This document shows, one piece after another, positions 5,101-60,923 of a stretch of DNA of 64,000 bases. This DNA is from Dipteris shenzhenensis. Taxonomy: Eukaryota. Made by a program: the position numbers and the translations under genes. The DNA lies in NCBI GenBank assembly GCA_047967505.1, contig CM106538.1. The stretch is one strand, 5' to 3'. Each line of letters begins with the position of its first letter. Within the stretch, counting starts at the first letter, position 1. The notes below the pieces were generated by a model. It was not told the origin of the DNA and did no database searches. It saw only the letters and a list, made by a program, of their open reading frames with translations.

Positions 5101-7670
5101 AATGTGAACGTTAAGAACAATTGTGTCCCATTTTCGGCAAGGATCAACAATACCCATGGTAGCCTCCCACCACCTTGCTCTGATCTTCTCATAGAATTGT
5201 TGAGACCTCACTCTAACTGATTGGAGAACTTAAATGGAACGTCCAAGGAATGGGCGGTAGCAAGCAGCATGCAAGACTACTAAGTAACTGGGGCGTGGTC
5301 TTGATAGACTCGAGACTACATGGTAATCCCCTCTCATAGGCCCCTTCATCCACCATCCCTCTTCTAAACAATAGAAGTGATCTAATCTTCTTGCCCTAAA
5401 GTCTACCCCCCTCCGACGATTATTATTCTAGGTGAAATCACATGCATTCTCTATGTTGATCCTGAAGCATCCCTCTCCTAACTGATTAACAGACATGGTG
5501 AGTGCGATCTATCAATCTCCTCCCAAGCATCCCTCTCCTGACCAATTAACTGACATGGTGAGTGGGATCTATCAATCTCCTATTCTATAAAATCCCAATC
5601 CATCCATTTCCCTCCTACCAAACTGGAACTGAGGCACTTCCAGCACTCTGCTCTGTCTTTGGAAAGATTTGGTGCATACACGCAACCCACATTGAAATCA
5701 AAGTTATCTACTTTGACCTTAACTGCCAAAAGATATCCTTCAGCATCCTAGAACAAATCCACCCAAAATCCATCCATTTCCCTCCTACCAAACTGAAACT
5801 GAGGCACTTCTAGCACTCTACTCTATCTTTGGAAAGATTTGGCGCATACACACAACCCACATTAAAATCAAAGTTGTCTACTTTGACCTTAACTGCTAGA
5901 AGATATCCTTCAGCACCCCAGAACAGATCCACCCAAAATCTATTTCTCTTCTACCAAACTGAAATTGAGGCACTTCTTGCACTCTGCTCGGTCTTTGGAG
6001 AGATTTGGTGCATACACACAACCCACTTGAAATCAAAGTTGTCTACTTTGAACTTAACTGCCAAAAGAGATCCATCAGCATCCCAAAATAGTTCCGTAGC
6101 ATTGAGCGTGATCCTAACCAACAATGCCATAGCCCCCTACCCTCTTATCGGGCAATTGACAAAGACTTCAAAACCGATATTTTGCCAGGTGAACCAAATC
6201 GGATCATTAGCTCCACACTTGAGCTCTTGCAACAACACTATCGACGACGGATGAAAAGATTTGATAACAGATAGACATACATATTGCTTAGCCCGATCAC
6301 ACCAACCTATCACATTCCACAATAGTAATGCCACTTTTGTACTACCTACCTTGCCAATCCCATCCCCCCCCCCTCAAGAAGCCTCTTCCTATGATTTACT
6401 TCTAGCATTGATTCATCCTGGAGCCAATCAATTTGGCTTGTGTTACCAACCTCAACCACACATAGTGCTCTCTCTTCAATCGGCACTTCAGGTGGGCCTG
6501 CAAAATGCCTCTCTCCTTTGCCGGACTCCCCATCTCCTCCTTCAGGACTAGCGGACATCGTTGTGCCTTCTTGCTCGTCAACCAGCCTCTTGCTTTTTTT
6601 CCCCATCATTTCCCAACCTTCCTCTAAAGCTTGTACCGGCATGTTGGTGGCTTGCTCGACTTGTGCAATGATGTCGGTGCTTGGAGCCTTGGTACCAGTC
6701 TCCTTAAGGAAGCCACTTCGACCACCTCTTTTGGAGAAGATGGGCCGAGACCTCTGTTTCATCTCCCAGTGCCAAAATAGTGTTTGTAGCTCTATGTGGG
6801 CACTCCTTGGTGCCAGGCACTAATTATTAGGAAAGTTGATCTTAATAAAATTTGGGATCTCCTGGATTTGGTCCCTGGGGGTCCAAGCAAGTTTATGCCC
6901 CACTGGAGACTTGGAGGACAAGGGTACCTATAGTTTCCCCCACGTTGAAGCCAATTTCTTAGCTGAATCAGTCAATTATTGTGGAAGATTGGGGAACTCG
7001 ATCCATACTAGACATTCATGGAAAATGAACTCGTCAATTCAAAATGCAGGGCTCCATGGAGTTGACAAGAATGACAAACGTGTGAACATGAAGGTCTTTC
7101 CTGCTCAGTGCAAGCTAGTTCCGAATCGTTTCTAAGACACACCTGACCAGAAAGAATCTCTTTCCCAGGAGCTTAACCACATATCCATTCAAGGCCATGT
7201 CACATTCGTAGACCAAAAACCGACTGAGTTTATCCAATGATGGGGCACAGCCGGTGAAAAACAGGTAGACTCCACCCTTGGTAAGACAAGTGAGCTCGGG
7301 CTTAACATCTTCTAGTTGTAGAGTGCATTCTGAGGAGTGACTTTTCCCGCCCTCATACAAGCGAGATACCAGCTCTGTTTGGCTGCATCCTTGCCACCCA
7401 CGATGGGCAACTTTGTTGTGTAGAATTATGGCTGCCCCATCGTCCTCCATCCAAACCTGAAGACAAGCAGAGAGAGGAACATGAGTGCCACGATGATTGT
7501 GCATGATGAAGGTGGTGTGAATGCCTCCAAGCATAAGAAAAGAGAGCAAGTCAAAGTAAATATTTTCAAGGGTGGTGAGGCAGATAAGTCAAATGATGAG
7601 GGCTCGTCAAATCCCTATGAGGCTAGGGAAGGGGCTTTATTGTTGATTGTTGCCCAATTAGCATAATTAG
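2170..7670 (-). mobile_element. Near full-length decayed L1/Tx1-type LINE (ORF1, endonuclease, RT)
   Basis: Minus-strand fragments are in LINE order: ORF1-like (VKLLGKRFFLVRC, 7115-7549), APE start (LLWNVIGW...IVLLQELK, 6137-6334), RT (VRQGCPISPLLF, MFTDDT, 3819-4166) and post-RT motif (SKERGGLEL...SKWILRL, 3287-3541). A T-rich tail lies near 2155-2185. Many stops and frameshifts. Confidence 0.85.
5468..6085. repeat. Tandem duplication (~60 bp x2) and triplication (~170 bp x3) inside the LINE endonuclease
   Basis: GCATCCCTCTCCT..GATCTATCAATCTCC occurs at 5468 and 5528. The CATCCATTTCCCTCCTACCAAACTG.. unit occurs at 5601, 5771 and ~5937. Confidence 0.9.
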
Positions 7671-22228: not shown

Positions 22229-24525
22229 ATTTACTGATGTACTTTCCCTCACATTTGTGGACAAAGCCATCAAATTGTATAATCAGTACTTGGATAAGCA
22301 CTCTGCCACATGGGACGAGGTGAAAGTGGCCTCCCTAACAAGGTTCTAACATGAATTCAGAAAGGAGACTGAATCTCAACCAACTCAAACAATGCATGGG
22401 CGAATTAATATATGACTTTGTAGTGAAAATAAGGGTATTGACCAATCAACTAAACAATGCACAAGATGAAACGAAATCTTGGTTGTTGACCAGCCTCACC
22501 AACTAGCTAGAATTGATGAAGACGTATGACAAATTGCTTCACAAAGAATTGTGCTTCAAAAAGGGGCGATGAACTCTAACAAAACAAGAAGGTGTTCTTC
22601 CAAAAAGTGGATAGTGAAGAACAAAGAAAAGATGAAATGGTGATCAAGAAAAACACCAATTTGAGAAAGAGAAGTTGAAAAAAATTCTTAAGGGAATGGG
22701 TATTAGAGGCACTCCGAACAACGGCAAGGTATGGTGCCACAAATTTAAGGTGGATGACCATACAACAAATGAGTGTTGGTTGGGTAATTTATGAAACATT
22801 TGAATCACTCGAGCCACAATAATGAAGAGTGCTAATTGATTAAGAACAAAAAAGTGAAAATGTCCATCAAGTGAAAAGAGAAGTTCGAATACAAAAGACT
22901 CTACTAGGGGAAAAGAAGGATGAACACAAACATGCATGCTATCTATGGCAAGGAAGTATACGGTAAGAATGAATGACGGTTTTGGAAGATGCAACTAGAA
23001 ATGCTACAAAAGGCATGTAACCAAGATGATTACGTATCGACAATCAGAGTATTGCTATAGCAAAAGCAGATACACAAGTGCTCACAATATCACTAGGGCC
23101 AGCCCAGATGAGCTCAAAGAAGTTGAATGAGCTAGATATTTGCACAAACAAAATTATCCACATCCTCAAACAAAAAGAAAGGGAGAAAAGATGGTACAGA
23201 AGGACCAATAGCACAAAACCAAACCAACATGACCTAGGAGAAATATTAGGAGGTGGACGTGGGTGAGTTTTCATCATCCATCTAGTAGAACTCTCTCCCA
23301 GTGTGCAAAGCTCTCTCAAATTTTGACAATCAACCAATGACTAGTTTCAAATTCTAAAGCCACAAGGGTGAAGCTGAAAAAAGCACCAATTTAGGAGGAA
23401 TAAGCTCCCATGATTGAGTGTTGATGATCGACAAAGGCTCTAGAGTACACATCATCTCTTCAAGGAAGTTAAAAAGAGGCTCAAATTAAAAAACTTGAAG
23501 CCTTATACATTCAAAAATTTCATTGGTGAATCAGAGATTTGGTTCTAGTAGGCATGCTCAAGGGCATTGCATCAAAATCAGTGTGGAGCATATTTCACGA
23601 CCACGTACATCGTGGCCAAGAGGGAGAGAGAACAAGGATACCCCATTTTATTGGGACAACCATGGTTGAAATGTGTCAAGGTACAACTGGGGAGGAGATG
23701 TCGTCAACATCACTTATGATAGGTAGGACATGCAAATACTAGTGAGAAAAAGCACAATCTAGAAGCAATTCAATCTTGAGTGCTTGGAGGTGGAAGAGGC
23801 CTACGTCTCTAACATTGAATATAAGTTTCTCACCTCAACATTGATCCATCACCATGATTGACACAATGCGGGTAGCCACTGAGATGCTAGTGAAAGTCGA
23901 AGAGCCCAAGATGGACTTCCCCACAGGATTCATAGAAGACAAAGAGGGACAAAGACAAGCCAACCAAACAAGCCAAATGACTCGAAGTGTCCAAATTAGT
24001 GGAAGTGGCCAAATTATAGAAGAGTGTTAGTCGTGTCTCCAAAAGACTGAAAAACACCTAAATGCATCCACTCCTAGCAATGGGAATGCCAGGGTTAGAC
24101 TTAAATCTGACTAATGTCAGAAAAAGAAAGAGGTAGTACAAAACATACAAAAAGCCAAGACAATCATTTATGAAGTGGAAATATTGCATATAGTTTGTAT
24201 TTCAGCAAATAGCCTGATGTAGGAAATGATGATTAGTTTATAACAACATCCCCGATGGTGTTTTGACTTTAGTCAGATAACAGTCAGAAACAGACATAGT
24301 CCCAAAAATGATGTGGTGGATAAGGCCACTACTACTGGTTGTTAGGGACAGTTATAACCGTCCCTATAGTTACACAATTATCCACTACTTACTATTGTAA
24401 CCCCCTTTTACTAGAGGTCTACTAACCCTCCTTGGTTGAGGTCCACATGGGTGGAGAGGTTATTATCAACACCTGGCACACCCAGTGGTAAAACTTTTTG
24501 CAAAAAAGTGGAGGACTCGAACCCT

Positions 24526-26708
24526 TCACTGGAAGTAATCCATCAGCTGAACTTTGATGGTGTTGGTGGAGTTCAGATCTATGACTGCTCCCTTAGCAGC
24601 AATTAGGTCTGCCTCATTTGCATCTTCTTTGTAGCTTTCGTTCAGTTCTGGTTCCTCCTCAAATGTTGTCTGTTTTTATACAAAATCTACACCCGAGGCT
24701 AAGGCATGGCTTGGGGTAGCTATGATTTATGTATCCTCATATGTGGCATCCATGAAAGTGGTGTGCTTTGTAGGCAATTGTGTTGACTGATTTTGCTATG
24801 TTGCGGTCGGCTTCTCAAGCTATGATTTCAATTCAAACAATTATCTGTCAACATCCATGGGCATCTATCCCTGTTTTGCACCCTGTGCTGTAGGTCGGAA
24901 TGTCTCCAATTCATGTGCCATGATATCATATGCATACGCAGCAGATGCAAAGGCCTCATAGGGTCTTTGAGCAATTACAAACAGGCATTTTTTGAGATTG
25001 GACCATAGGTCCTGAGATGTCTTTGCCAACTGTGTCTTCATATCTGTGAGATCGGAGGAGCTAAGGAAAACTCCATCTACTTCTTCTACAAATTCCTTGA
25101 GGTGTTGATCAACTCCTTCCAAGGCATGGATCTATTCCTTCACTATAAGATTCTCAATGTTCAAGTCTGTGTGGGCTACACCCATTCAATCCAATTGTAG
25201 ACAAAATTATGCTTTCATTTCCTCTAGCCAAGTTGTCAAAGTTGGCAAGCATTCCTTTTGTACTCTGACTTGGGCAATGAGTTTGGAGACTTTCTTCTCC
25301 TGCATAGCTCTCTGTATTGGGCGTATTCCCTCTTTATTTCCTCTAGTTCCAACTGAGTGACATGGAACTTTTTTTGCATATCAGCTAGCTTAAGCATATA
25401 TTCATGTCCGGCCTTCTTATTCTATGTCAATTCATACATTCGTTGTTTCAACTGCAACTGTACTTTTCTCTGCTTATCAACATAGTTTTGAAAGACTCTG
25501 AGGGCATGTTCTAGCTCCATGCTGGAGTCCATTCCTCTTGTAGGTGGACTGGTCATATCTTGTTTTGGGGAGGCCTACAAGTCTTTCATGTTGTGGACAG
25601 GGGAGAAGGCTTTGAAGGACCTTCTAGGAGGCATTGCAAGCAATATACTAGCAATGTTCTCCTCTAGTTTATTCCAGGTCTCCGTCTTTTGAAGAATGGA
25701 TTTTGCCCAAGGATTTAACTTTATCTTCTTGGAAGATTTGGGCTCTGTAGGGGTGGCTAACAACTCTTCTCCTGCTAAGGGTGTATCCCATAGACGTTTT
25801 GCCAAAGATTGGCCATACACAGCCATAGTAGCTTCCTCTTTGGAGTACTAAGTATCTTCCAATGCTTGTAGCATGTCTTGCTTTGTCTTTTCCTCCTCAT
25901 ACTAGCTATCATGCATTGCTTTGGTGCGCTCTTCTCTGTACCAAGGGACTACCTCCAGGGTCTTTGTACCCATCTGGCTGGCAAATTTAAATAAGGCACC
26001 AATAAATGGCCCTGTCTTGGAATGAGCATTAGAAGCACTGAAATCCTTTTTGGCAATCTTGCTCATAAGGCGTGAGTGGAGGAGATGTGCCCATGATATC
26101 TTTGTTCCCTTCTCAGCTGCACTTAGCGTAGCATAAGAATCTCTACTCATAGTATTAGTTTTTTCGAGCCACTGCATCCTTTCGAGATACCAAACAAGCT
26201 GCTGGTGTCTTCTCATATCCTAAACATTATTGATGAAAAAATAATTCTTTTGTGTCTCTGGTGGTCCGAATTCCTTCTGCATGTCAAAATCGATAGCCTT
26301 TTTGTAGAGAACCTCTTCATCATTGATGATAGGAAGCTGAAAGACCTATGCCATAATTTCAAGAGAAATCATGATATACCTCTACTGCATTGGAAAATCA
26401 TGATATTCTCAGCAAGTATACCTCTACTGCATTGGAAACTCTCGTATTGTGCCAGTGCATGCTGGGAAGCCTTCCATGATGCCCAAGGTAAACTAGTGTA
26501 CTACAATAAGCTGATTTTCTTTAGCCGCTTCTGATGCTTGGAGAGGTCCAACGATACCTTGAAGTTCGCAAAGCTACTTTTACAAAAGAAGGGGTGGTTC
26601 TCCATTCGATTTTGTCTTCTCCAGATCTAGTATGTGTATATTCTTTTTCGCGGCCGGGCTTTGGTGTGGGATTTTCCAAGTAGGGGTGAGAGATTTCTTA
26701 GGACCCAT
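24526..26708 (-). pseudogene. Disrupted extra ORF of the Gypsy element, unknown function
   Basis: Collinear minus-strand ORF pieces run from MGPKKS (ATG 26708) through 25902-26216, 25575-25826 and 24865-25122 to ..VQLMDYFQ* (TGA at 24526-24528). The C-terminal half is charged and coiled-coil-like. Confidence 0.6.
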
Positions 26709-27436
26709 GGCTGTGTCAAGGAGCGTTCTAGCACTTAAGAGCTTGAGGTTTGGATCTAGTTGTTATGATGGGCTAGGAAATGTGAGCCGATGGCTTCTTT
26801 TGGGTGCCATAAGTAGAGGAGGCTCATGGGAGAAGCTTGTGTCGATGTGTCGTTGCAATGGACGGTCCATCAATGCCTCATGCAAGGAACTAGCAATGCT
26901 TTTCGGTGACTATGAGGGACTAGTGTTCATCTTTCGTTTGGCACTACGGGGGTTATTATTCATGATGGAATTTGTCAGGGAGGGGTTGGCGAGGATGGCT
27001 ATTGTGGGAGTGAGAACCTCAACGGAGGGAACAGGCTTGTCGACAAGGTTCGGGTTCATACCTTGTACGTTCTTGGGTTGTCTGGTCATTACGGAGAATC
27101 TATCACGTGTGGCACAGATTGCGTTGTTTGGGGCGCTGTCGAAGACTCGTCTCTACATCAAAGCTGGATGTCAAAGTAGTAGTTGGATCAGAGGTGCAGT
27201 CCTTTCTTTTGCATGAAGTAGATCAAAAGGGGATGTTGGAGTCGGATCGAAATCGGACTGTGTTGTCAGAGCAAACTCGGAAAGACTTGTCGGATGTGAG
27301 TCAAAGTTGGGTCAAACTGTAAGATTCGTGTCGCACGTGTCAGGCGGATCAGGAGTCAGAGTTGTTTACCCACTCACGTATGCTCATTGGATTGCGGCCG
27401 GACACACTAGTCGAAATCGGATTATACTCAAAGTGC

Positions 27437-30046
27437 TCAATCGTTGGCATTGCATCCGTTGGATTGCATCAGATGGATGTTGGGGCCAGGCTTTCCACTG
27501 TGGGCACGTTGGCTAACTCTTGTGTACCTGGGGAAAATAGTAGGATTTGTTGTCCTAAGGAAAATCTCCTCCTCATCATCCTCAAATTCAGCTATCATGT
27601 TGATGCCCTCTGCTTGTAGTGGGTGAACTTGTTTTGGGAAGCTTCTCTTTGAAGAGAGATTGATTTTAAACTTATTTTTTCCTTTCTTGATTCTTATTCT
27701 CGCTGAACTCCAATCTTGTTTTACTTTGGCAGCTCTCAGCCATGGTCTACCCAATAACATGGAATAGGAACAATCTCGTTCCTCAATTCTGAGTACTACA
27801 AATGTGACTTTAAAGGATAGTCCCATAATGCTAATTTCCTGTCCTCTTAGTATTCCAAGGGGTTGTATTCTTCTTTGGTCAGCCATTCTGACCTAAAATG
27901 GTGCTAGTGCAAGTTCATTGCAACAAAATTTCTTAAATAGATCCTCAAAGAGGATGTTCACTCCTAATCCTCCATCTACCAATACTTCTGGTGTCCTTTG
28001 CCTTTTATAATCCACATCTATGAGTGGGACTTGATAATCCACATCCTTCAATGGTGGATGTGTAAATGTCGGGTGTTTCCTCTTCATCTTTACTCTATGG
28101 ATGATTTTTTGTTTGAGGAATGTCCCTAAAATGCAAATTCTGACATAATTGGTTCTTGAATGCTGGAACAAGATTTAGAAGTTGATCCAATGTTATCTGA
28201 CTTTGGAATCCAAAAGATCTTTAAAGAAGAGTGTGGGGTCTTCATGTTCATATTTGGCCTTTTCCTGCATCTGACTTCTATTCTTCAATGTGGTGTCTAC
28301 AATTGGAATGGCTTGCTCCTCTTTGATTTCCGTTAGCTTGACCTTGTCACCTCCATTTTTCTGCTCTGCAGAGTCCGAGCTAGTTCCATCTAGCAAATCA
28401 CTTTTTTCTTTGGGAATATATCTCAAGTTGGAAGAAGCTTGTCCTATTGTGTGTGTATCTAGAACTTTGTTAGGTTGATGGATGTTGCTTTGCTAAAGTT
28501 TATTATCTACATGTTGATGTCAGACATTGTCCGTCGAAAGACTGTCAGACTGTGTTTGGAGTTGTCTAAGGTCAATCTTAGCCTTACCCTTGTTTTGGAG
28601 CTATGATGATCTTGCTTCTGTTGCTGCATTACTCTCAAGTAATTGATGTAGGGCTTTATTTCAGACCTATGCTTGATAAGGCCAGTTCATTGGCTTTGCT
28701 ATCATTCTTGGTGCATCTTCAAGGCCAAGCATGGGCTTTGTACCTCTGGATCTTGTCACTACTAGTGCATGTATGTTACCCTAATTTCTTTGATTTTATT
28801 GATTGTAATCCTCATTTATAGGACCCAAGTACACCATATGAACACCTGGTGGTGGCTGCTTTGCTGATTTTGGTTACCTCTTGGATTATAATTGATTATT
28901 GGGATTCCTCTTTCTCCTCTGTGTTTGCACCAAAGCTCACATTGAGGACCTTTTATGTGGCCTTCCATGCCACAGTATGTGCATGCTTGATTTTGGTTTT
29001 GTTCTTATTGATTTTCCCAATTCTACTGATTGGGTCTTCTTGGTGGTGCATTATTGAATCTTTGTTGTCCTTGTCCTTGCCTACCTATTGTAATTTGATT
29101 AGCTACCACACGGGTGGGGCTTGATTTTTTGAATTTTGCACATGAGGAGGGACTCTCCCCCTATAATTTGGATTATACTAGCATCTCTCTTTGTCATGAT
29201 TGTCCTTCCCACAAAATTCTCAAGCAACTTTAGGTAGGGTGGGGGTGTTTTAAAAGCTTCCAATTGATCCTTAATCATTTGCTCTAACTTAGAGAGCTTG
29301 TATGTTTTCTTCTTTCCTTTTGATTTCTCTTTGTTCTTGCTCTGTCTTTTCTTTTTCTTTGAGGTCTCTTCCTCTTCACTCTCATCATATCTGATGTATC
29401 ATCTTTTGTATCATCTAGAGCTTTCCTCATCGTCTAAATCACTGTCTGTCTCTGTTTCAAAATCTGTGTCAAAGTCAGAATGCCTTTTCTTCTTTTGTTT
29501 TTTAGACCTTGACTTCATGCCTAGTCTTCTTTCTGCTCTTTGTGCCACATCAACCATGTTGTTAAAATCATTTACTCCTCCAAGCTAATCTCTGCCAGCT
29601 ACTGATGTCCATGATTCTTTGTTTAGTCCCTTACAGAAATAATCTCCCATTTGCTCATCAGTGGGTTGTTGATTGTTTATCAACCTTCTATTCAGATTTC
29701 TGAACATTTGGGCATAGTCTTCAACTAAGAGATGTTTTTTCTTCATATTTCAAAGCTTCTTGAGTACATGTTCTAGAGTTTTTTCTTTACAAAAGTAGCT
29801 TAAAAATGCAATTTTCAAATCATCATAAGATGCAAAATGAGCTACACCATATTGCATTAGCCAAATCATTGCCTTACCATTAAAAGTTGCTACAAACTGC
29901 TCTTTCTTGGTGAGGTCCGGAAGTTGTCCGATTCCACTTGCAACCCACCTTGTTTCAAATTGTCCGAGATGACTGCTGAAACTTGTCCTCTTTTGCCGAT
30001 GAATTTGCCTGACTTTACCAAAGGATTCTGCATTCTTGGCTGGCAT
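27437..30046 (-). pseudogene. Gypsy gag-protease (disrupted)
   Basis: Retrotrans_gag-like KKEQFVATFNGKAMIWL..SYDDLKIAFL. Knuckles (*)EFCGKDNHDKERC (~29200) and CTYCGMEGHIKGPQC (~28960). Protease VLVDGGLGVNIL and MLLGRPWL. Confidence 0.85.
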
Positions 30047-32879
30047 TATTGTCTTTGAGCTGGAGCTTGCACTTTCTTTTTTGGAGGTGGAGATAATGGA
30101 TTAAAGTCGAGTTTTCTTTGAGCCTGAACAAATAGGCATGCTGCAAAATTTGTTGCAATACTCCTTTTGAGTAATTCTTTAGTTGGTGATTGCACCATCA
30201 ATTTGCTAAGTTCTATTTGTACCTGACTTATTTCTATGCCATGCACAGAATTATTAGAAGATCTTGTTCCACTCGGTGTGTAATCTGGATCATGGAAAAT
30301 GTCATCTTGATCATCTGTTTGTGTGCCTCGCTTCCAGTCTAGCACGGTTTCTTGTAAAATAGGTGTAGCCAATTCGGCGAGGTGATGTTTTCTCCTAAAA
30401 GTTATTCGACATGGACCAAGATACTTGCCATGTAAGGAATAAATAGAGAACTATAGTCACTGGCTACTATTGAGTTGCTTGTAGTGCAGTTTGATAAGGA
30501 ATCTACTTGCACTTTGTTGGAGCTTGTTGCCTTGAATATTTGATTGTGCCATTGCGTAGTCGGATGACTATCCCCACTGGTAATCTAATGACTACTTGCT
30601 GGCTTGTCTGGTTAATGTGGCGACTGAAGACTTTGTCAACAGTGTCACTTGTCGAACCGTGTATTGTACTTTTCTTTGCCAATGAGTTAACAATTGTTTA
30701 TCAATGAGGGACCTAATCAAGTTGTTACACACTTGTATGGTCTGAATGGAGTCAGAGTACAATCTGCTTCTTGGTGAATGCTCAATTCGAGATACAATTT
30801 TGTAGACACCTCACTCGTTGCAGTGTGTTCACTTTTTTGAAGTGTTGTGGTGGCTATCCAACTGGTTCTTATCATGAGGAAGTCATTTACAAAAGTCGAG
30901 AAGGATTTTCGAAAGTGGTCCGCCTTCAAGCACTTTTTGAATGACTTCACTCATTGAATCTGGTTGTATGCCATTTCATGCTTTGCTAGAAGTCATCTTT
31001 GCAACAATACATTATTGGTGATTTGATTTTCTTGGGAGTTGTTGCCTCTGTTGGTCGATTTTCTTTGTAGTCATTGTAGATCATACGATTTTCATTCTTT
31101 TGTGAAATTGCTATGTAGCAGCAACCGGCAGTCATAGCTCAAACGTAGTAGAGGATTGCCAATATTGTTAGTGGGTCTCCAAAAGACTAGAAAAGCCCTA
31201 CACATATCCACTCTTGAAAAATGGGAATGCCAGGGTTGGGACTTAAGCATGAGTAATGTTGGAAAAAGGAAGAGGTAGTACAAAACATACAAAGAGCCGA
31301 GACAATAGTTTATGAAGTGGAAATATTACAAATAGTTTGTATTTCAGTAGATAGTAATAGCAACCCTGATGCAGGATATGATGATCAACTTATAACAACA
31401 TCCGATGGTGTTCCAACTTTAGTCGGATAATAGTCAGAAATAGACATAGGCCCAAAATGATGTGGTGGATAAGGCCACTATTATTGGTTGTTAGGGACAT
31501 CTATAACTATCCCTACATTTACAAAATTATCCACTACTTACTATTGTAACCCCCCTTTACTAGAGGTCTACTAACCCTCTTTGGTTGAGGTCCATGTGGG
31601 TGGATAGGTTATCCTCAACAAAGAGCAAGCTAGCAAAGAAATAAATGTGACTGATTGGAAAGAAGTGCTTCAAAGTCTTAAAGCAAGGAAGGTGTGTATG
31701 AAGAATATCTAATTCCTATAAGTTCTAGTTTTCTTCATCAATAAATGGAGCAACAAGAAAATTATCTATCAAATGATGATGAAGAGCTGAAAGATTATCA
31801 TTTTCCAATAGAAGATGATGAAGAGTCATTTGATAATTGTGCATGCTATGCATTTGCACCATCATTTGCAATTGATGTCATGTGGAAGCAAGAGAAGGTT
31901 AATCCAAATGCATTCTTTGAGGAGCCTAAATATACAATCCCTTACAACAAGGAAGGTTTGGGGTACATTCCTAATCCAATTCAAGTCAATGATTCTAAAC
32001 TATGTCAAAGCAATGAAGTTAAAGTTTTTTCTAATCTTTATTTCAAGATTGTAACTTTTGATGAGGATGACGAAGATCTTGAGGACTACAATGAAGGCTT
32101 AAGTCCAAATGGTTTTTCTCTTTGGTTTGGACTAATGGATCCAATATAACCGGAGACAACAATGAGTCAAAATATTGATATCAAGGATGAAAATGCTATA
32201 TTGGACAACCAATTTGGCCACATGATTAATGCAAATGGTTTGCAAAAGGTTGGCTTTGCAGAGCCATCAATTTGAGATAGCTATTTGTCAACTCTATCAG
32301 TGGCACTTGATGGATGTGCTCTGATGGATCCTTTCGCATGAACATGACACAATTATCACTGAAGCACATTAGCGAGTGGCAAAAGGTCACTTTGCAGGAG
32401 CAATCATAGTGAAGAAGGTGCTGCAAGCCACACTATAGTGGCCAATGCTATAGAAGGATTCCTCAAGATTTGCACAGTAATGTGATGTGTACCAAAGATT
32501 GGACCAGCCATTGAATCAAGATTGGATGCAGATGCACCCGCCAAGGTTACCTCTCGCACCATTCCAAAAATGGGAATTGGATTTCATGGGTTGGTTCAAA
32601 CGTGTAGTCGTAAGAACCAAGAGTTGCTATGTACATGTTGCAATATACTATTACACCAAATGGGTTGAAGCATGGGCTTTGTGGGACAATGCTGCAAGAT
32701 CAATAGAAAAGTGCCTTTACAAAGATATATTATGTTGGTTTGACTATCCCATCAAGTTGGTTAGTGATCATGGGAAGCACTCCGTTGTCATGAAGCTACA
32801 TAAATCTCTTGCCTTTTTTTGGAAGAAATCTAGTTGTAAATTGATCATGCCCAAAAAATGTTGTAATTGCTTGGACTGA

Positions 32880-33325
32880 CTTTCATTCAGGATATTTTCA
32901 TAACTTTGGATGGATCCATCTGAATACTAGCTACAGAGATTATGAAACCTAGAAACTTTACTGATGGTGGAGATGCCATTTTTTGAATTGCAAACTTAAA
33001 TTGTACTTATGAAGTCATGTGAGAACCTCCTCTAAGACTTCTTTATGCTGCTCCATTCGCTAAACGTGCTAGGACCATCCGATAATGCAAACGACATCAC
33101 TTACAATTGATATAATCCAATTGGAGTTTGAAAAGTTATCTTCTCAGCATCTACTGGAGCAATATTAATTTCCAAGTATCCTTGGCCATCACGATCCAAA
33201 AGCCGCTTTTGATTCATACCCTTGGAAGAATTCTGACTATTTTGAATATCACATCCATAGGCACAACTGCGGTAAACAGCTACAATTTTACATCTATCTT
33301 GAGGACCTGATGAGTGAAAAGACAC
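32880..33325 (-). mobile_element. Gypsy RT fragment
   Basis: GYLEINIAPVDAEKITFQTPIGLY, and VKFLGFII at ~32950. Confidence 0.65.
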
Positions 33326-33329
33326 ATGA

Positions 33330-34546
33330 TTTTCCCTTGCAAGCTGTGTTATCCATTGTTGCCACCGCCGTCAGCACATCTTTTGCCAGTTCAGTAATGA
33401 AGTATTTGTTTAGCACTTTTGCCACAGGTTGCTAGGCTAGGGGAACTCATTGTAGGAGTTGGAGGAACTAAGCTACATAGTCTTCCACATCCTAGTCTCC
33501 CTACTTGAGAATTCACAATCCTTCCAGAGTCTTTGAAATCATTTTCTATTTATGAAACCACCTCAAGAATGCAATTCTAATAGCATCATAGGATGAAAGT
33601 AGTCTATTGGGTTCTTTGCTAGCCATCGTGATGCCTTACCATCCAAGTTGGCTCAAATATAGCCTCCTTCTACATGACATCCACCACACTCGAAATGTTG
33701 AGGGCATAGATTTTAAGAAACTAATGTACATCTCTGGATTTCTCCAAAACTTTGTATGTTTGACATTTGCTATACCGCCATCATTGGAACAACAATTGTA
33801 GCCACAACAGTAGTTGGTCTGCCTCCTGCCAGCCAAAGATTGTGGATTTTGGAACAATCCTCTTACCATTGCTACTGACCATGCTTGCCTCACGGTTGGT
33901 GATGAAGGTTTGCTCAGTACCCTCCACATGCCCAGAACAGGCTGCAAAGTAGGAATAGAATTGGAATGGCACCTTCCACTTCACGGTGTGACCTCGCCAC
34001 TTTTTGTGAAGTGATCTAGCCACTTCTTGTGGGGCTCTCTTGATCCAACTAGGCATCACCATGCTCCAGTGTGCCCCAAATGGGTTCTTCGACTCCTGCT
34101 AGCCATCTCCCTAATCTAGGGGATCTCCACACCACAATGGCAATAGACCTTCTATGCCATTGGGGATGCCTCATTGTTGGAACCAATGGTTTTGGAGGTC
34201 CTTGCAACTGTGTTCACATGCATAGTTATGTCTTATTCAGACAAAAGACCAAAAATACATTATATGTCTGCATGCAAGTTCCAAATCTATCGAACCAGAA
34301 TGTTGACCATTGGAAAATCACCAAACAAAGCATCTCGTGGATTGGTCTTGATAGAAAAGATATAAGTTTGCACTTCGTGGATCACCTGTCACTCAAAAGA
34401 TGCTCTCTTGAATCATTGCCATAAGAAATGCAGGTCTCGATAGATCTAAATGCTGTGCCACAAGATAATGTGGGCACTAACGAGTCTGCATGGGAATTTG
34501 CCACACACCACAAATGTGCAGGATTGAGAACATTGCGGTGGCAATG
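33330..34546 (-). mobile_element. Decayed LINE RT 3' fragment
   Basis: Minus-strand GLGMWK (~33490) and WSPRLGRWL (~34110) resemble LINE post-RT sequence. Heavily disrupted. Confidence 0.45.
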
Positions 34547-35519: not shown

Positions 35520-37250
35520 TTGTCCAATTATTACTAAGCTTATCATGATAATGAATAATTCTGGGATCAAGATTTTGGCAATAAGAATTCCACATCCCTT
35601 GGCTTTACATGGCCCCAATGGATTTATGGGATGTACTAATACTTTGAAAAACTTGGAAAGCATCCATTCTTGCATGACATATACTGACAAAATATTGGAT
35701 ATTAGCCTCATCAAGGTTGGGAAACTTGAACTGCATTGGAACCCATCTTCCTTGGTAATGGCAATAATTATATTTTTGAATAAAGTTTGATGAGATTAGT
35801 CACATGATCAAAATTGATGAGTTCTTCATATTTATCTACCACCTCCACATGCAATGTTGCCAACTAGCTAGAATCTTCCCCTCTCTAGCCTTCATATGGT
35901 AGTAAACTAAAATTAATGTCCACTCTTATAGTGCCAGCAATTTGTTTTCCTCTCCCTTAGGGTTAGAGCTTGTGGCACTTCATTAGGAGAAGAAGTTTCA
36001 AAAAGGCGATGGAAAATGAATAGATTTTGTATGTGTCTCAAGAAGTAAAAGCCAAAACTAGAGGTGTATGTGTCCCAACTTCCCATCCGGTTGAGTCAAA
36101 ATGGGCCCAATTGCAATCCTAGATGCATCCACATGCACATGAAAGATCAAGTTCTAGTTTAGCTTCTTGAGGATAGGATTTTTTGCAAAGCTTAGAATGC
36201 TTCAATTTAAGGTTCATCCACTCAAACTTCATGTCATGTCTTGTTAGCTAATGAAGAGATTTGACTATGCCCACATCCTAATGGGCAAACTATCTATACA
36301 AGCTAAGGATTCTCATGAATGAGTGCACTTTCTTGACAATATTTGAGTCTTTCATTTTTCGTATGTCATTAAATTTTGACTTTTTAGTCATTATGCATTC
36401 ACCTAAGATCCTCTGTCCCACCAACACTCTTGAGAACAACTGAATACACATTGTAGGAATTTAAGGTGATTTATGTTTTGGAACTTCTAGAACATCTTTT
36501 GTGACATTACAAGTGTGCATGCTTTGTACTATACATAGAGAAATTATCCAAGACATGGCAAGGAACTCATCGATGTAATTGTGGAAGTTTCCCACCATGA
36601 AGCACTAAAACATATAGGATGCATTCATCAACCCAAATGGCATCACTATATGTGAATATTCTTGCCATTTGGTGATGAAACTCTTCTCCTCCTAATCTTC
36701 TTTGGCCAACATGATTTGATTGTACCAAGTGCATCCTTCCTTGAACGAATGCATATCATGGCTAGCTACTTTTTCCCAAATGGTGTTTATGAATGGTAAT
36801 AAGAATGGGTCTTTCATTGTCTTAGGTAGTCTATACAGACTCTCAACTTGCTATTTTCCATTGGTACAATTATGATTGGGAATATCCAATTGCTTTGGTA
36901 GAATTGCTAGATGAAACCTACCTTTATTAGCTAGTCAATGTTTTCCTTTACCAAATACATGTACTATTGACTTGGCTTAGCATTTAGAATGAGTGTTATT
37001 TAGTATTGAATCAAATTTGGTGGTACCCCTTCAAGTCCTTTGTATTCCCATTTGAATACACCCTTATACTCCAAAACAAGTTCTTGGGCTCTCTTGAGGA
37101 ATTTGTTCACAGAGTTCTTTGTTGATTTGGATCAACCTTGGTGCTTCTCACAAATGGAAGGAGAAATCGAAAACATTCCAACATATAGTGTAGTCAACAT
37201 TGGAGGAAAATTTTGTACTAGATATCATAGGGGAATATCGACTCAGCAAC
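35520..37250 (-). mobile_element. Decayed Gypsy RT/RNaseH
   Basis: FHVHVDASRIAIGPILTQ (~36090-36145), an MPFGLMNA-type motif (~36620-36645) and an RT core remnant at ~36540-36570. Confidence 0.75.
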
Positions 37251-48659: not shown

Positions 48660-51305
48660 GCAAGAAAATGGTGCATGTTCATAAGTTGGCAGTCGCAAAC
48701 CTTGGTCAGAGAGCATACATGGTTGCTCATATAGATTCTCATTTATAGCACCAAAGGTATGGACATCTTAATTTAGATCCATGCAATTGCTTGAATGCAA
48801 GAACATGGTGAAAGGACTCCCCTTTGTCAAAGAGGGTGATTTGTGTGAAGGATGCCTTTATAGAAACAACATAAGGAACCTTTTCCCAAGGGTTAGGCCA
48901 TAAGGTTGAGGCCACAAGAGCAAAGAGACCATTAGAGTTGGTGCATATTAATATTGCAAGGTATATGACCAATATGCCATCACTTGGCGGTAGTAAATAC
49001 TTTGTTACATTTATTGATGAGACCATACAGAAACGCTATTTGGCTACACCATGAAGAAAAGGTTTAAATTGTTTGCAATGTTCAAAGAGTTCAAGGCCAT
49101 CGTAGAAGCTCAGCCAGTTGTCGAATCAAATGCCACAATGTGAAAGAATATACACTCCAAATTCTTTACTAAGTACTGCAAGCAATGGGAAATACACATA
49201 GGATTTTCCTTTCCTAAAACATAGCAAGAAAATGGAGTAGTGGAATGAAAGAGCCACACCATTGTTGAGTGTGCAACGAGCATCATGCAAACAAAGGACA
49301 TGCTGAAAAGTTTGGACCAGAAGCAGTTTGCACAATGGTTTATTTGTTATACCAGTCCCCTATGAATGCTTTACATGACATGACACCAAAGGAAGCATGG
49401 AGTGGATGCCTAGCATCTCATAGTATTTGGATCAACTACATGTGCTCATGTATCAAAGGACAAGAGGGGTAAGTTTGATGCCAAGAGTGAGAAATGCATT
49501 TTCGTTGGGTATGCAGAGGAACATAAACCTTACAAGTTGTACAACCTTGCAACTCATAAAATGTTTACTTCCCATGATGTGGTGTTTGATGAGAAGGTAA
49601 ATCATGCTCTTTCCATCATGTTTATGTAGAATTAATGGAAGAGTAGAGAATCAACTAGTTGATAATGCTAGAGATACAGATTTGTACATATCCATAGAAT
49701 GTGGAATATTTGATTGCATGCTACCTAGCATGAGTGGAAGTAGTTAAGGAAATGCTACCTAGCATGAGTAGTGGTCTAGGAAATGGGAGAGTATCTCAAA
49801 GACATTCTACAAATTCCCAAGCAGAGAATGCATCTCATGGTCAGAATGACCAAGAAGCCATGTCATCTAAGAAAATTACAAGGTGGGTAAAGAAGCTAGT
49901 GGATGAGGTAGATGGCATTATCAAGGACTTGAAGCTATACATGCTACATTGCACAAATCAAAGGACCTATCAATTTCTGGAGGCAAAAAAAATCCAAGGA
50001 ATGGGTTGATGCCACGGAAGAAGAGTATAATGGCATTTCTCCAGACTGCAACATGAATTTTGGGGATTGATGGAACTGCCCAAAAGAAAGAATGTTATGC
50101 ACTACAAATGGTTCTATGAGGTCAAGCAAAAATCTGATGAGAGTGTTAACAAGTATAAGGCAAGACTAGTGGCCAAAAGTATATGCTTAGAAGAAGGGCA
50201 TTGATTATGAGGAGACATTTGTGCCAGTCACAAGGATAAAAACAATCCACCTTATTCTTTCTCTTACTTGTAGTATGAGGTTACAGTTGCATCAAATGGA
50301 CATCAAGTTCATGTTCCTAAATGGAGAACTAGAAGAAGAGGTGCATATGAGACAACCAAAAGGATTTGTGGAGAAAGGATATGATCCTCTTAGTGTGCAA
50401 GTTGAAGAAGGCACTCTATGGTCTCAAGCAAGCCCCATGGGCTTGGTACATCAAGATTGACACTTACTTCAAACAAGAAGGCTTCAAGAAAATTAAAACC
50501 TAATCATGGGGTGTATGTGAAGAGAAATATAGATGCTCTCAGAATCATTGCATTCTATGTGGATGACCACATCATAGCAGGCAGCAGCAACAATAAGTTG
50601 ATCAAGGAGGTCAATGTTTGTAGATAGTTTGAAATACATTATTTTGGGATTCTTGCATTATATTTTGGGTGTTAAGATAGCACAACTCGAGGAAGGCACT
50701 TAGCCAAAACAAGTACATTGAGTCTATTTTAGAGTAGTTGGGAATGTTCACAACATGTTGAAGTCATAGAGTACAAAATTTTTAGATCCTGCACTTTACC
50801 AATGAGCATAGCACAAATAGAGAAACGCATATTTCTTAGCCAAATAAGGGACATTGAGTCTATGTTAGAGTAGTTTGGAATGTTGGATGTCATATCTCTA
50901 AGTACACCTATTGAGACCCATCACAACATGTTGAAATTGTAGAGTGCAAAGGTTTTAGATCCTAAACTTTATTGACAAAAATTTATAAGCCATATACTTG
51001 ATTTCATTGACACGGCATGATATTTGCTATGTAGGGCTATTGAGCTAGTTCATGGCAAAGCCGTGTGTCCACCATTGGAATGAGGTAAAGTGGATTTTTG
51101 GATACCTTAGTGGGACAGCCAATCATAGGCTTGCATATCTGAAAGAGAGCCCATATGGAGAACCACATATGATGCAAAATGGGGAGAAGGCCACCAATGC
51201 AAGTCTATTCAAGGAAACAAATTTATGCTAAATCCTCATTGTGAATCTTGGTCTAGCAAGAAGCAAACCACCGTGGCATTCTTTACAGCAGAGGCTAAGC
51301 ACTTG
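48660..51305 (+). mobile_element. Truncated Copia pol (GAG-pre-integrase, integrase, RT, start of RNaseH)
   Basis: HQRYGHLN, LELVH..PSLGGSKYFVTFIDE, KFDAKSEKCIFVGY, YKARLVAK, LHQMDIKFMFLNGELEEEV, FYVDD and SKKQTTVA. Confidence 0.9.
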
Positions 51306-51321
51306 CTCAATTAGTTTTCTT

Positions 51322-51385
51322 TGATGCACTCAATGCCATGCATAATTTGATGTCCTTGATGTATACTCAATGATGTGCATAATTT
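51322..51385. repeat. Left arm of inverted repeat (pairs with 60823-60923)
   Basis: The reverse complement of TGATGCACTCAATGCCATGCATAATTTGATGTCCTTGATGTATACTCAATGATGTGCATAATTT matches the right arm. Confidence 0.9.
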
Positions 51386-54300
51386 GACAACAAGACCCCA
51401 AATCTAGATCTTTTTGAACTGGATCAAAGAGCATAACTCTCTTTTCATTGTACATTGCTCAATTGGCTTTTTTTAACAACTTGAGGGATAGTGGAATCAG
51501 GAATCCAATTGTTAGTGCATATAAGAATTTGAGTCATTGTCAATCCATGGGAGAATTTTGTGTGACAGACCTTAAGTATTTGATGAGAACAACTTCCATA
51601 TCTGAAGTGCAGGATCAAGTTTCTATTTGTCAATGGGAAGATGTGGAAGTTTGTTGATGGTGGAAAAGTGGCAATGCTAGCCTATGATGAGTTAAATGCC
51701 ACAGCAATGGATATTTTCACTATATAAACTATGACTAAAGAACAAAATGGTTGCCCAAATGTGAGAGTGATCTCAATGAAAGCGGAATGGAAGAGGGTGA
51801 GAGAGAGGAAGAGCCACACAAGTTTTTGGTGGGTGCAAAACACCCTAATCTTCTATGTCATCCATATATATGTGTGTGTTTGAGTATTGTACATAACCAG
51901 GTTGAGGTACAGTGTCCTTTAACCCCCACAACCTCCCACTTAAAGGACAATGTGCCTTTAAGAGAGAACTATCAGTGGACATACTATCCAATGCCCATCA
52001 ATACATGACAATACTCAAACTACTGACTAGGTAGACTCTTCGTCATCATATCTGCAGGGTTATCATTTGTATGAACCTTGACAAGCTCTATGCGCTTGTC
52101 CTCAAGAACCTCCCTAATGAAATGGTACCTGACCTCAATGTGTTTGGTCTTTGCATGAAAGACCGTATTTTGTGCTATAGCTAAATAGCACTCATGGAAT
52201 CACTATGCAATGTCGGTATACCTGTATGAAGCTCCCACTAGTCGATCAAGCCATATAGCCTCCTTGTAACCCTCTATGGCTACAACATTCTCGGCCTCTC
52301 TGGTAGACAAAGCAATGCCCTTCTGTGCGCGAGACATCCATGACACTGCACCACCTGCAAAGATGAACACATAACTAGAAGTGTGGATCTCCTACTATCT
52401 ACATGCCTTGCATAGTATGAATCTATGTACCCAAGTACGTGCATCTCTCCTCTACCAAAGCAGATGCATATCTCCCTCATAATGCACTTACTATGCCTCC
52501 CAATTCCTCTTTCATAGATTAGCCATATATCGGCTAACAACCGTCTACTTCAAATGCAATGTCCAATCTAGTAGCTATCATAGCATACATAAGACTTCCA
52601 ACCGTTGGTGCATAAAGGAACCTTGGCCATCATGGCCCTCTCCTCATCTGATTTGGGACTATTTGCCTGACTCAGTTTTACATATGGAGGCAATGGAGTA
52701 CTTACTGCCTTTCCCCCCTCCATATTGAAATGTTGTAATACTTTTGTAACATACTCCTGTGAAAGCCAAAGGAGTTTCCTACTCTGATCACGCGTGATGC
52801 GCATACCAAGAATATGACCTACAGGTCCCAATTCTATCATGTCAAGGGCCTCATGCAACTTGGCCTTCAATGCATCTAGCTCATAAGTGTTCTTGCTAGC
52901 CAATAGCATATCATCCACATAAAGTGCCAAGATTATCAGGCTATTATCTTTAGTCCTTTAAGTATAGAGGTAGTAATCAATCTGACTTCTTCTGAAACCT
53001 TGGGACCAAATGAAAGCATCAAACTTTTGATAGCAATCTCTATGCACTTGCTTAAAGCCATAGAGAGTCTTTTTCAGCTTGCAAACCAAATGCTCTTTGC
53101 TCTTTTCTTCAAAACCTTCTGGCTTTACCATGTAAATTTTCTCATGCAAATCCCCATGCAAGAAAGTTGTCTTGACATTCATCTGCATAAGCTCCATATC
53201 CTTTTGTACGTAGGCACATCATCACTTGTGACCTTCATCTTGTAGACCCATTTACGTTGCCACATGCTTTCTTTCCACGTGGCAAAGAAACCAAGTCCCA
53301 AGTCTTATTTTTCATGAGTGAATTCATCTCTGATTGCATGGCATACTCCCACTTGCATTGATCCTCATACATCATAGCCTCCCTATAGTAAGAACGCTCA
53401 CTACAATTAGGAAGCATCACATAGTCTACTTGAACAAATCTCTCCAGTGGTCTAGATACTCTAGCTCATCTTCTTAAGTGCATTTGAGCTTGTTGTCCCG
53501 CCTGCATATCAACCACATTTGGCTCACCGTTTCCACTAATAGATGATCCATCATCTGCCCTAGATTGTGTGCCTATGGGAGTACCTAGTGGTAGCATTTC
53601 CTGCACATTCGGTGCTTAGATAGTTTGCTGCCTATCAACATATGTAGGTGGATTCACATCTTGGAAAGTGATTCTCCTCATTTCCACATCCCTCATGGGT
53701 GTCATGCATCTTCTTCTCATTAAATACCACATCATGGCTTCATATGATCTTCTTTGCTTCTGGATCCCAAAGACAATATCCCATCTTTCCACTTTCACCA
53801 TAACCCAAAAATATGCATTTCCTAGACTTAGGATCTATTTTCTTTTGAAGCTCTTTTGCCACATGTGCATATGCCTCACACCCAAATATATGCAAATGAG
53901 AGTAAGAGGGCTTCTTGCCACTCCATGCCTCTTTAGGAATACCACCATCCAAACACTTACTACATGCACTGCAATCTTCATTGCCTCAGCCCAAAAAACA
54001 CCAGAAAGACTTGCATTGGAAAGCATACATTGCAACCTTTCCTCAATGGTATGATTCATCTGTTTTGCAACTGGATTTTGCTCTAGAGTACGAGGGGACG
54101 TGAGCTCCCTCTTGATCCCATGTGTATCACAGAAATGTTGAAAGTCATGAGAGAGATACTCTCCACCATTGTCAGTCCATAGGCATTTAAGCATTCTACC
54201 TAACTGATTTTCAACCAAAGCCAGCCATTTCTGAAATACTTGGAACACATCGCTCTTCCAAGCTATAGCATAAGCCCATACTTTCCTAGTTGCATCGTCA

Positions 54301-59755: not shown

Positions 59756-60822
59756 ACTATCCGAAAAGATAAGGCAACCTATTGTATACACCCCCGAACA
59801 GTAAAAACAACCTAAAATATGTTAAAATACAACTCCCATGGGCAACCCACGGGTAGTAGGAGACTCCACGCAATAACTACGAGCAAAGATAACACTTCCT
59901 GGGCTGGAAACAAGCAAGAAACAAGCTCTACAAAGCAGGCAACGGGCTAGAAATCACTGCTGCAGTAGTAAGAAAATTGAGATTCCCTTCCTTCGTTTTG
60001 AAGCCACAAGTGAATAGAAGCTCTCCCACAAGCTTCCACAGCAATAGGAAAGCAGAGGGCGGCAAGAGGGCAAGGCTCTGATGCTAATTGAGAGTGCTCT
60101 CAAACAAAAGTGGAATGGAAGAGGATGAGAGAGAGGAAGAGCCACACAAGTTTTTGGTGGATGCAAAACACCCTAATCTTCTATATCATTCATATATATA
60201 TGTGTTTGAGTATTGTACATAGCCGATGTTAAGGTATAGTGGCCTTTAACTCCCATAAAATAATGCATTTGAGGTGTGGACAATGGTGATGCCCATTTTA
60301 GAGGGCAAAACCTTGATTACACACATGAATTTGAAGACACAATTGGCAAATCCTCATATGGAAGAAGGTAATGACTTGATGGAACACCTTAACAAGATGA
60401 AAATTCTCAAGGACAAACTAACCAAGAATGGCTTGATGTGGATAATGTAGAAGTTTTCAAACAAATAATCCAAAGTTTACTCCATCTTTGAGAGCCTCGG
60501 GGTGGCAGTGATTGCTAGAGGGGCATAGCGATCAAGTCAGATGAATTGATAAGCTTATTGATCCAAGACGAGGACTGGAGAAAAGGATTGAGGGATGAAC
60601 ATGTTGAAGGTGCATTGGTGACCAAGATGCGCAATATGTAATTCAAAGGCAAGAAGCCTCATAGGAATACATAACATGGTGAGAGTTCAAAGTCCAAGCC
60701 TAGACAGCATAAAAACAATCAAAGCCAATAGAGATAACAGACTTTTGCTAAACAAAGGCAATCTGCAAAGAGCAAAATGAAGTGTTATAAATCTGGCAAG
60801 TTGGGTCACATCTCCAAATATT

Positions 60823-60923
60823 AAATTATGTACAGCAGTGAGTATACATCAAGGACATCAAATTATGCATAGCATTGAGTTTACATCAAGGACATCAAAC
60901 TATGCATAGCATTGAGTGCATCA
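60823..60923. repeat. Right arm of inverted repeat: 37-bp unit x2.7 ending in TGCATCA
   Basis: Units of AAATTATGCATAGCATTGAGT(A/T)TACATCAAGGACATC. Confidence 0.9.

Follow-up and report, generated by a model that had tools for sequence, protein, structure and literature searches.

A tRNA 3'-end sequence beside a long terminal repeat of a probable non-autonomous Ty3/gypsy-type retrotransposon from Dipteris shenzhenensis

To our knowledge, all the long terminal repeat (LTR) retroelements studied begin their first DNA strand from a tRNA or a self-primer and their second from a polypurine RNA that resists RNase H, the polypurine tract (PPT). Copying of the primer tRNA by reverse transcriptase (RT) has, in the accessible part of PMC13191261, its major strong stop at m1A58 and minor stops at positions 55 and 54, an unmodified tRNA being copied fully. 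Read-through past the 18-nucleotide (nt) primer-binding site (PBS), with an abrupt junction, is reported for 44 defective HIV-1 proviruses in the available text of PMC12657518, and Ty3 and Ty1 have a bipartite PBS (PMC5371799, available excerpt). Here we describe a 7,595-bp LTR element of Dipteris shenzhenensis, located in a 64-kb window (the whole stretch of DNA that was analysed, 64,000 nt of contig CM106538.1), in which the sequence of a tRNA 3' end stands beside the left LTR. This copy of a tRNA end is a real and odd observation, confirmed by direct reading of the sequence. The reading that we tentatively favour, at somewhat less than even probability, is that the element is minus-oriented and that a retro-copied tRNA end, which primed, or marks, plus-strand synthesis, occupies the site where this strand starts.

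The tRNA-derived block and the borders of the element

The left border contains the following features, in the order of their positions in the window (TSD, target site duplication; ORF, open reading frame).

24021-24025, no strand: left TSD copy AAGAG, direct reading, matching 31621-31625
24026-24471, no strand: left LTR of 446 bp, TGTTAG...ATCAACA, from the repeat finder and alignment
24472-24473, plus strand: spacer CC (GG on the minus strand) from the LTR end to the tRNA-derived block, direct reading
24474-24488, plus strand: block A, TGGCACACCCAGTGG, complement of tRNA positions ~62-76, direct reading, exact match unique in the window
24489-24512, no strand: 24-nt insert splitting the tRNA copy, direct reading
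24513-24524, plus strand: block B, GGACTCGAACCC, complement of tRNA positions ~51-62, direct reading, exact match unique in the window
24526-24528, minus strand: TGA stop of the last minus-strand ORF (24529-24675, ending in KVQLMDYFQ), 1 nt from block B

Block A covers the acceptor 3' strand with the discriminator and CCA, together with 4 nt of the T stem, and in block B the T loop TTCGAGT is accompanied by 3 nt of the T stem and by CC. As reverse complement, the two blocks give a single T arm (GGG / TTCGAGT / CC-CAC), a 7-nt acceptor strand, the discriminator G and CCA, and jointly they are the complement of tRNA positions 51-76, CCA included. The LTR ends with CAACA at 24471 and the TGG of block A begins 2 nt further in, which is the form of a primer site: the complement of a tRNA 3' end, with a TGG start a few nucleotides from the LTR. 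It departs from a canonical PBS in that the block is on the plus strand, whereas the coding segments detected by tblastn (42/42) are on the minus strand. In the minus-strand cDNA, U3 is represented by its complement, and after 2 further nt the complement of tRNA positions 76-51 follows immediately. The first-pass annotation had given the letters and coordinates of both blocks and the letters of the hairpin between them, all of which proved exact, and its claim of a primer-site geometry with polarity opposite to the genes is borne out by the sequence and by the strand of the tblastn segments. From the last stop codon to the left LTR there are 53 nt, made up entirely of tRNA-derived sequence and the insert. 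The latter contains the palindrome ACTTTTTGCAAAAAAGT at 24493-24509 and ends with GTGGA, echoing the GTGG at the end of block A, and it looks like a later small insertion or duplication.

Since CCA is not encoded in eukaryotic tRNA genes, its presence in block A points to a mature tRNA copied by RT as the source, and the block probably arose by reverse transcription of the final 26 nt of such a tRNA. ARAGORN found no tRNA genes (0) in the 64-kb window. Regarding the level of chance, the excess is in the position and internal logic of the blocks and not in motif counts. The 15-mer of block A with at most 3 mismatches has 2 matches in the window versus 1.20 expected, and the 12-mer of block B with at most 2 mismatches has 2 versus 1.74 expected, both being at chance. 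The features in question are the TGG, separated from the LTR by 2 nt, a T-arm motif on the same strand within 40 nt, and the fit of the blocks to a single T arm. By our own arithmetic, a T-arm motif with 10 specified bases within 60 nt has a probability of ~6e-5, which multiplied by 0.105 (TGG at offsets 0-5) gives ~6e-6.

The block is like a canonical PBS with over-extension, as far as the available text of PMC13191261 describes it, in being the complement of a mature-tRNA 3' end with CCA, in having its TGG 2 nt from the CA of the LTR and in extending past 18 nt into the T loop. Unlike a canonical PBS, it lies beside the LTR downstream of the genes, on the opposite strand, and is split by the 24-nt insert, and unlike the reported over-extension its match goes on to position 51, beyond the minor stops given there. 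The HIV-1 read-through inserts show the same succession of LTR, primer site, extra tRNA bases and an abrupt junction to the interior; however, in the accessible portion of PMC12657518 the sequence downstream of them retains the orientation of the provirus, with a deletion as the result, whereas here the whole interior is antisense, and HIV-1 is an animal retrovirus, whereas the present element is a fern-type retrotransposon. Like a PPT, the block is located between the last ORF and the LTR that is 3' by gene order, with its 3' end 2 nt from the TG of the LTR, but it is not purine-rich and its sequence is that of a tRNA end. In the bipartite sites of Ty3 and Ty1 there is also tRNA-related sequence outside the core site, with contacts to the T arm, and that of Ty3 is beside the 3' LTR. 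On the sense RNA those segments are, in the excerpt of PMC5371799, the complement of the tRNA, whereas the block described here, read with minus polarity, is identical to the tRNA on the coding-sense RNA, which sets it apart from a Ty3-type bipartite site.

A purine scan of both borders in both orientations found no PPT abutting either LTR, confirming the absence of a PPT at the left LTR that had been noticed at first pass. In the minus orientation, the best 12-nt window at the left border has 8 purines versus a strand mode of 9, and the longest purine run in the last 30 nt is AAAAAG, beginning 28 nt before the LTR. The right border contains the following features.

31141-31155, plus strand: AAACGTAGTAGAGGA, the only purine-rich stretch (12/15) near the right LTR, a weak PPT candidate ending 10 nt before the LTR
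31148-31161, minus strand: TGGCAATCCTCTAC, candidate minus-strand primer site for the minus orientation, with an ATAT spacer (31162-31165) to the right LTR
31166-31620, no strand: right LTR of 455 bp, from the repeat finder and alignment
31621-31625, no strand: right TSD copy AAGAG, direct reading

Because the 3' end of the primer defines the start of the LTR, AAACGTAGTAGAGGA, being 10 nt off, is unworkable as a plus-orientation PPT. On the minus strand the right border reads LTR...CTAACA-ATAT-TGGCAATCC, which looks like an ordinary 5' LTR-spacer-TGG junction for the minus orientation; from frequencies in the window, the chance at offsets 0-5 is 10.5% for TGG and 0.9% for TGGCA. Complementarity of the self-priming (Tf1) type between the leader and the start of R was at best 9/11, a value that 47/100 shuffles reach or pass.

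A small canonical LTR element of ~2.7 kb, on the minus strand at 57088-59760, served as internal control. Its LTRs (57093-57375 and 59475-59755) are ~95% identical over 256 nt and its TSD is ACTAT. The PBS of this element, TGGTATCAGAGC (59461-59472), is of the initiator-Met type and is separated by 2 nt from the 5' LTR, and the 3' LTR has a purine tract rich in G (57376-57384) directly next to it. The control element thus shows the normal pair of priming sites for this genome, and the 2-nt spacing from LTR to site is common to its PBS and to the left border of the 7.6-kb element.

Folding of the left border was also analysed. ARAGORN detected no tRNA (0) in seven test forms of the region, with and without the 24-nt insert, and Rfam gave no tRNA match at E of at most 10. 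The fold energy of the block region is ordinary (z = +0.23 for the minus strand and -1.16 for the plus strand). A second degenerate primer site at 24527-24542, forming an inverted repeat with block A, was rejected, as 679/2000 shuffles and 63/129 internal windows reach its score. A search for inverted repeats of 18 nt or more that could mark the breakpoints of an inversion gave 0 pairs.

Architecture and coding content of the element

Both LTRs start with TGTTAG and end with CAACA, and the element has the terminal organization of an LTR retrotransposon, with two direct repeats, TG...CA ends and a TSD within the 4-6 bp range. Since AAGAG is present at both ends, the LTR pair comes from a single integration event. 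The alignment of the two LTRs has 386/442 identical positions (87.3%), with 56 mismatches, including 40 transitions, and 16 gap columns. The span given at first pass (24025-31620) is correct at its end and one base early at its start, the true start being 24026. In a blastn comparison of the whole element with the 64-kb window, used to look for sister copies, the only matches were those of one LTR with the other. Both LTRs contain a pure purine run of 15 nt (AGAAAAAGAAAGAGG / GGAAAAAGGAAGAGG) on the plus strand, at 24119-24133 and 31261-31275, ~95 nt from the left LTR ends, which may be due to chance (~0.2 by our own estimate).

The coding features of the interior, all of them on the minus strand, are as follows.

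24919-25299, minus strand: C-terminal coiled-coil region of the family ORF, tblastn with P0158 and P0157
25971-26575, minus strand: unnamed conserved domain, placed after the protease in the relatives that lack RT, with tblastn E values of 1e-18 to 1e-25
27524-28285, minus strand: retroviral-type aspartic protease with one in-frame TAG (27893-27895), tblastn and phmmer, E ~1e-40
28843-28983, minus strand: further colinear tblastn segment
29417-29971, minus strand: gag (capsid) region, tblastn with residues 93-288 of P0160, E 5e-30

The six-frame ORFs of the element add up to 2343 amino acids (aa) on the plus strand versus 2434 aa on the minus strand, and the ORF count leaves the coding strand undecided. 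Longer relatives were collected in a second search, which gave 17 proteins, 9 of them hypothetical proteins of the fern Adiantum nelumboides, and all the segments that these proteins match inside the element by tblastn are colinear. The earlier statement that all ORFs run on the minus strand is therefore right by homology, with every one of the 42 segments on that strand, but not by ORF counts, which are nearly equal.

The gag region was identified through the fern proteins, two of which (P0160 and P0163) match Retrotrans_gag and Ty3_capsid; the search for longer proteins with the gag-like ORF at 29753-30100 found no relative. Nor did Pfam assign a family to any of 20 raw ORFs or to the protease with its TAG read as X. 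With the same X-reading, phmmer with the protease frame (27440-28174, minus strand) retrieved 972 proteins at E of at most 1e-3 and 184 at E of at most 1e-10, the best having 5e-45. Among 12 of these protease relatives that were scanned, mostly the longest, 4 had RVT_1, 4 had Retrotrans_gag and 3 had aspartyl-protease families. The link to Tat/Ogre lineages proposed in the first-pass annotation was checked in part, and what stands is that the protease family is found in Ty3/gypsy-type gag-protease-RT polyproteins.

The relatives are of two kinds, gag-protease-RT proteins (P0153 and P0165, with RVT_1) and RT-less proteins with an extra domain and a tail (P0156-P0158, P0161-P0164 and P0082), with ORFs of up to 1412 aa. 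The domain at 25971-26575 is matched by P0156, P0157, P0161, P0162, P0163 and P0164, and also by P0082, a protein in which no Pfam family was detected; the family scan of P0157 and P0158 gave weak protease matches only. The coiled-coil tail is matched by residues 997-1119 of P0158 (E 1.5e-7) and residues 1165-1250 of P0157 (E 4e-4). P0157 has 162 residues past the last aligned one, which predicts the end of the ORF near 24500. As this remainder reaches to near 24500 and the last stop codon is 1 nt from block B, the interior can be taken as a complete family unit, which has a ~900-nt leader at its right side and, at its left side, a short 3' end.

No RT or integrase segment was found inside 24026-31620, and RT matches are present elsewhere in the window. 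Between its LTRs the element has gag and protease in one orientation and lacks the RT, RNase H and integrase of an autonomous Ty3/gypsy element. To judge from these homologies, it is a non-autonomous Ty3/gypsy-type LTR retrotransposon consisting of gag, protease, an unnamed domain and a coiled-coil tail, and it would be an RT-less member of a multi-copy fern-type family. In this family, the unnamed domain and a long, acidic coiled-coil tail replace the RT-RNase H-integrase region. RT-less LTR elements that keep gag are known as TR-GAG and similar elements. The present one is like them in having LTRs, a TSD and gag and in lacking RT and integrase, with P0153 and P0165 as autonomous RT relatives. 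Unlike them, the family described here keeps the protease and adds the unnamed domain and the coiled-coil tail in an ORF of at most 1412 aa.

A stretch of ~0.9 kb between the protease and the extra domain (26580-27440) has no protein homology. Its G+C content is raised (0.46-0.49), its plus-strand GC skew is strong (+0.26 to +0.37), and the longest plus-strand ORF (26563-27213, 217 aa) is located here. It amounts to ~318 codons here versus ~165 aa in the relatives and may be an insertion or a variable linker.

The element is flanked by fragments on the plus strand, a protease on the left (23561-23707) and an integrase core on the right (32484-32795), with a spacing too short for an intact RT between them, and it apparently sits inside a related gypsy-type remnant of greater age. 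Degenerate fragments of gypsy-type gag, RT and protease, all on the minus strand, are located at 33062-33590, 36488-37131 and 60908-61968, and fragments of copia-type RT (RVT_2-like) at 50284-53209, likewise degenerate. The window is a retrotransposon-rich region. At 5597-6102 there are three tandem copies of a ~170-nt unit, with 92% and 61% identity to the first.

Priming of the second strand and rival readings

The left LTR is the 3' LTR if the genes set the polarity and the 5' LTR if the tRNA site does. The order of the genes makes it the 3' LTR, with the tRNA copy, which runs in the sense of the element RNA, taking the place of the PPT. We tentatively infer a minus polarity of the LTRs and a priming of the plus strand by a tRNA. 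The CCA end of the copy is 2 nt from the TG of the LTR, which is the place where the 3'-OH of a plus-strand primer is required. A tRNA would anneal to the complementary site on the minus-strand cDNA, with its 3'-OH in the place of the PPT primer, and would be extended by RT through U3-R-U5, taking over the role of the PPT, after which RNase H would remove this plus-strand tRNA as it does with the minus-strand primer. A single cycle may have sufficed for the block to enter, if RT switched templates to a packaged tRNA and this tRNA stayed annealed, or the block could alternatively have been inherited; for a near-perfect 26-nt copy extending past the T loop, a fresh copy seems to fit better than long inheritance. 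Minus polarity needs one unprecedented thing, namely a tRNA copy replacing the PPT, and this single assumption accounts for the missing PPT, the 2-nt spacing and the native layout of the interior. Regarding the LTRs themselves, TATA-like and poly(A)-like strings are found both ways and the TGTT..AACA ends are symmetric. In the minus orientation a TATAAAC box is central in the LTR, the typical position in plant LTRs according to the available text of PMC11656987, and on the plus strand both the LTRs (+0.10 to +0.11) and the canonical minus-oriented control (+0.16 to +0.22) have a positive AT skew. The central box and the skew point weakly to minus polarity. We consider improbable a broader version, in which the RT-less gag-protease family would habitually go without a PPT, a host tRNA (Arg-like) priming the plus strand at the tRNA-identical site and both strands being tRNA-primed; in a variant of it, the tRNA-identical site may also open the primer tRNA and bridge the genome ends.

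A plus polarity of the LTRs is the main rival, to which we give a probability only somewhat lower. The block would then be a canonical PBS lengthened by read-through of plus-strand strong-stop synthesis to position 51, with the whole interior inverted behind it, through aberrant strand transfers in the replication cycle from which this copy arose or a later genomic inversion or capture, the copy being a dead by-product. The geometry and orientation of the block are exactly PBS-like, and its 2-nt spacing is that of the control element. Precedents are at hand, as tRNA read-through inserts of 7-54 nt end at the junction in the 44 HIV-1 proviruses (PMC12657518, accessible portion), a "primer over-extension sequence" is documented together with stops past position 58 (PMC13191261, available text), and tRNA-Arg primers are given for 10% of the surveyed plant elements and as typical of non-chromovirus gypsy lineages (PMC6317226, available text). 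In addition, the purine stretch (12/15) near the right LTR is on the plus strand. However, the inversion must take in the whole interior, starting 1 nt beyond the stop codon and ending 4 nt short of the other LTR, with breakpoints that no inverted-repeat pair marks, and the right junction would have to copy a natural LTR-ATAT-TGGCA arrangement by chance (0.9%). A usable PPT would still be missing, given that the purine stretch stops 10 nt before the LTR, and the HIV cases retain their orientation past the tRNA insert, the word "inversion" being absent from the accessible portion of PMC12657518. With a complete colinear interior 1 nt from the block, a normal-looking right border and no plus-orientation PPT, the evidence tilts modestly to a tRNA-primed plus strand over an inverted interior; the two are not decisively separated, because LTR polarity is unreadable from one copy.

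Two other explanations are of much lower probability. That the tRNA-identical stretch of the minus-sense RNA serves a job other than priming, whether as a tRNA-like 3' structure or as a decoy that base-pairs with the primer tRNA along its 5' acceptor and T-stem strands, opens it and bridges the 5' and 3' ends of the genome like Ty3, seems to us very improbable. Ty3 does have part of its PBS beside the 3' LTR (PMC5371799, available excerpt), a tRNA-identical strand would by construction be complementary to the partner strands of the tRNA, and the minimum-free-energy fold of the minus strand pairs 24525-24535 with block A, but neither ARAGORN nor Rfam detects a tRNA, the fold z-scores are ordinary and the inverted-repeat partner of block A is at chance. 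Moreover, the 3' segment of Ty3 is complementary to the tRNA and not identical, and the exact 2-nt spacing would be left unexplained. Among the three readings offered by the first-pass annotation, the tRNA-primed plus strand and the inverted coding region both survive, and the tRNA-like transcript end finds no support in the ARAGORN, Rfam and fold results. We give hardly any credence to a chance match, or to a remnant of a tRNA gene or of a tRNA-derived short interspersed element (SINE) beside the LTR. The motif counts are at chance once mismatches are allowed and no full tRNA is detectable, but the CCA is present, the match starts 2 nt from the LTR, the blocks fit a single T arm and the arithmetic given above (~6e-6) speaks against coincidence.

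Several points weigh against a tRNA-primed plus strand. The tRNA is presumably tRNA-Arg(UCU), and a literature search with the tRNA-end string returned only unrelated primers and small RNAs, so that the Arg identity stays an assumption. The candidate primer site at the right border fits no tRNA known to us beyond TGGCA. The element is the only copy in the window, old (13% LTR divergence) and degenerate, and none of the tests fixes the polarity of the LTRs decisively. An LTR followed after 2 nt by TGG and the complement of a tRNA is the textbook arrangement of a 5' LTR and a minus-strand PBS, for which no new mechanism is needed. The read-through past the 18-nt site in the HIV-1 proviruses (PMC12657518, accessible portion) and the over-extension to positions 55 and 54 (PMC13191261, available text) count on the same side. 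As far as the retrieved texts go, a literature search for tRNA-primed plus strands or for LTR elements without a PPT found nothing on point. One old copy cannot suffice to claim a new replication mechanism.

If the interior is inverted, the locus would be a plant example of primer read-through together with inversion of the whole interior, such accidents of reverse transcription having been documented mainly in HIV proviruses so far. If the plus strand was primed by a tRNA, a natural tRNA copy at the start of the second strand would mean that the PPT is replaceable, even if only through a one-time event, and the element would provide a test case for primer choice by RT and for the old ideas that tie tRNA-like genomic tags to the origins of retroelements.

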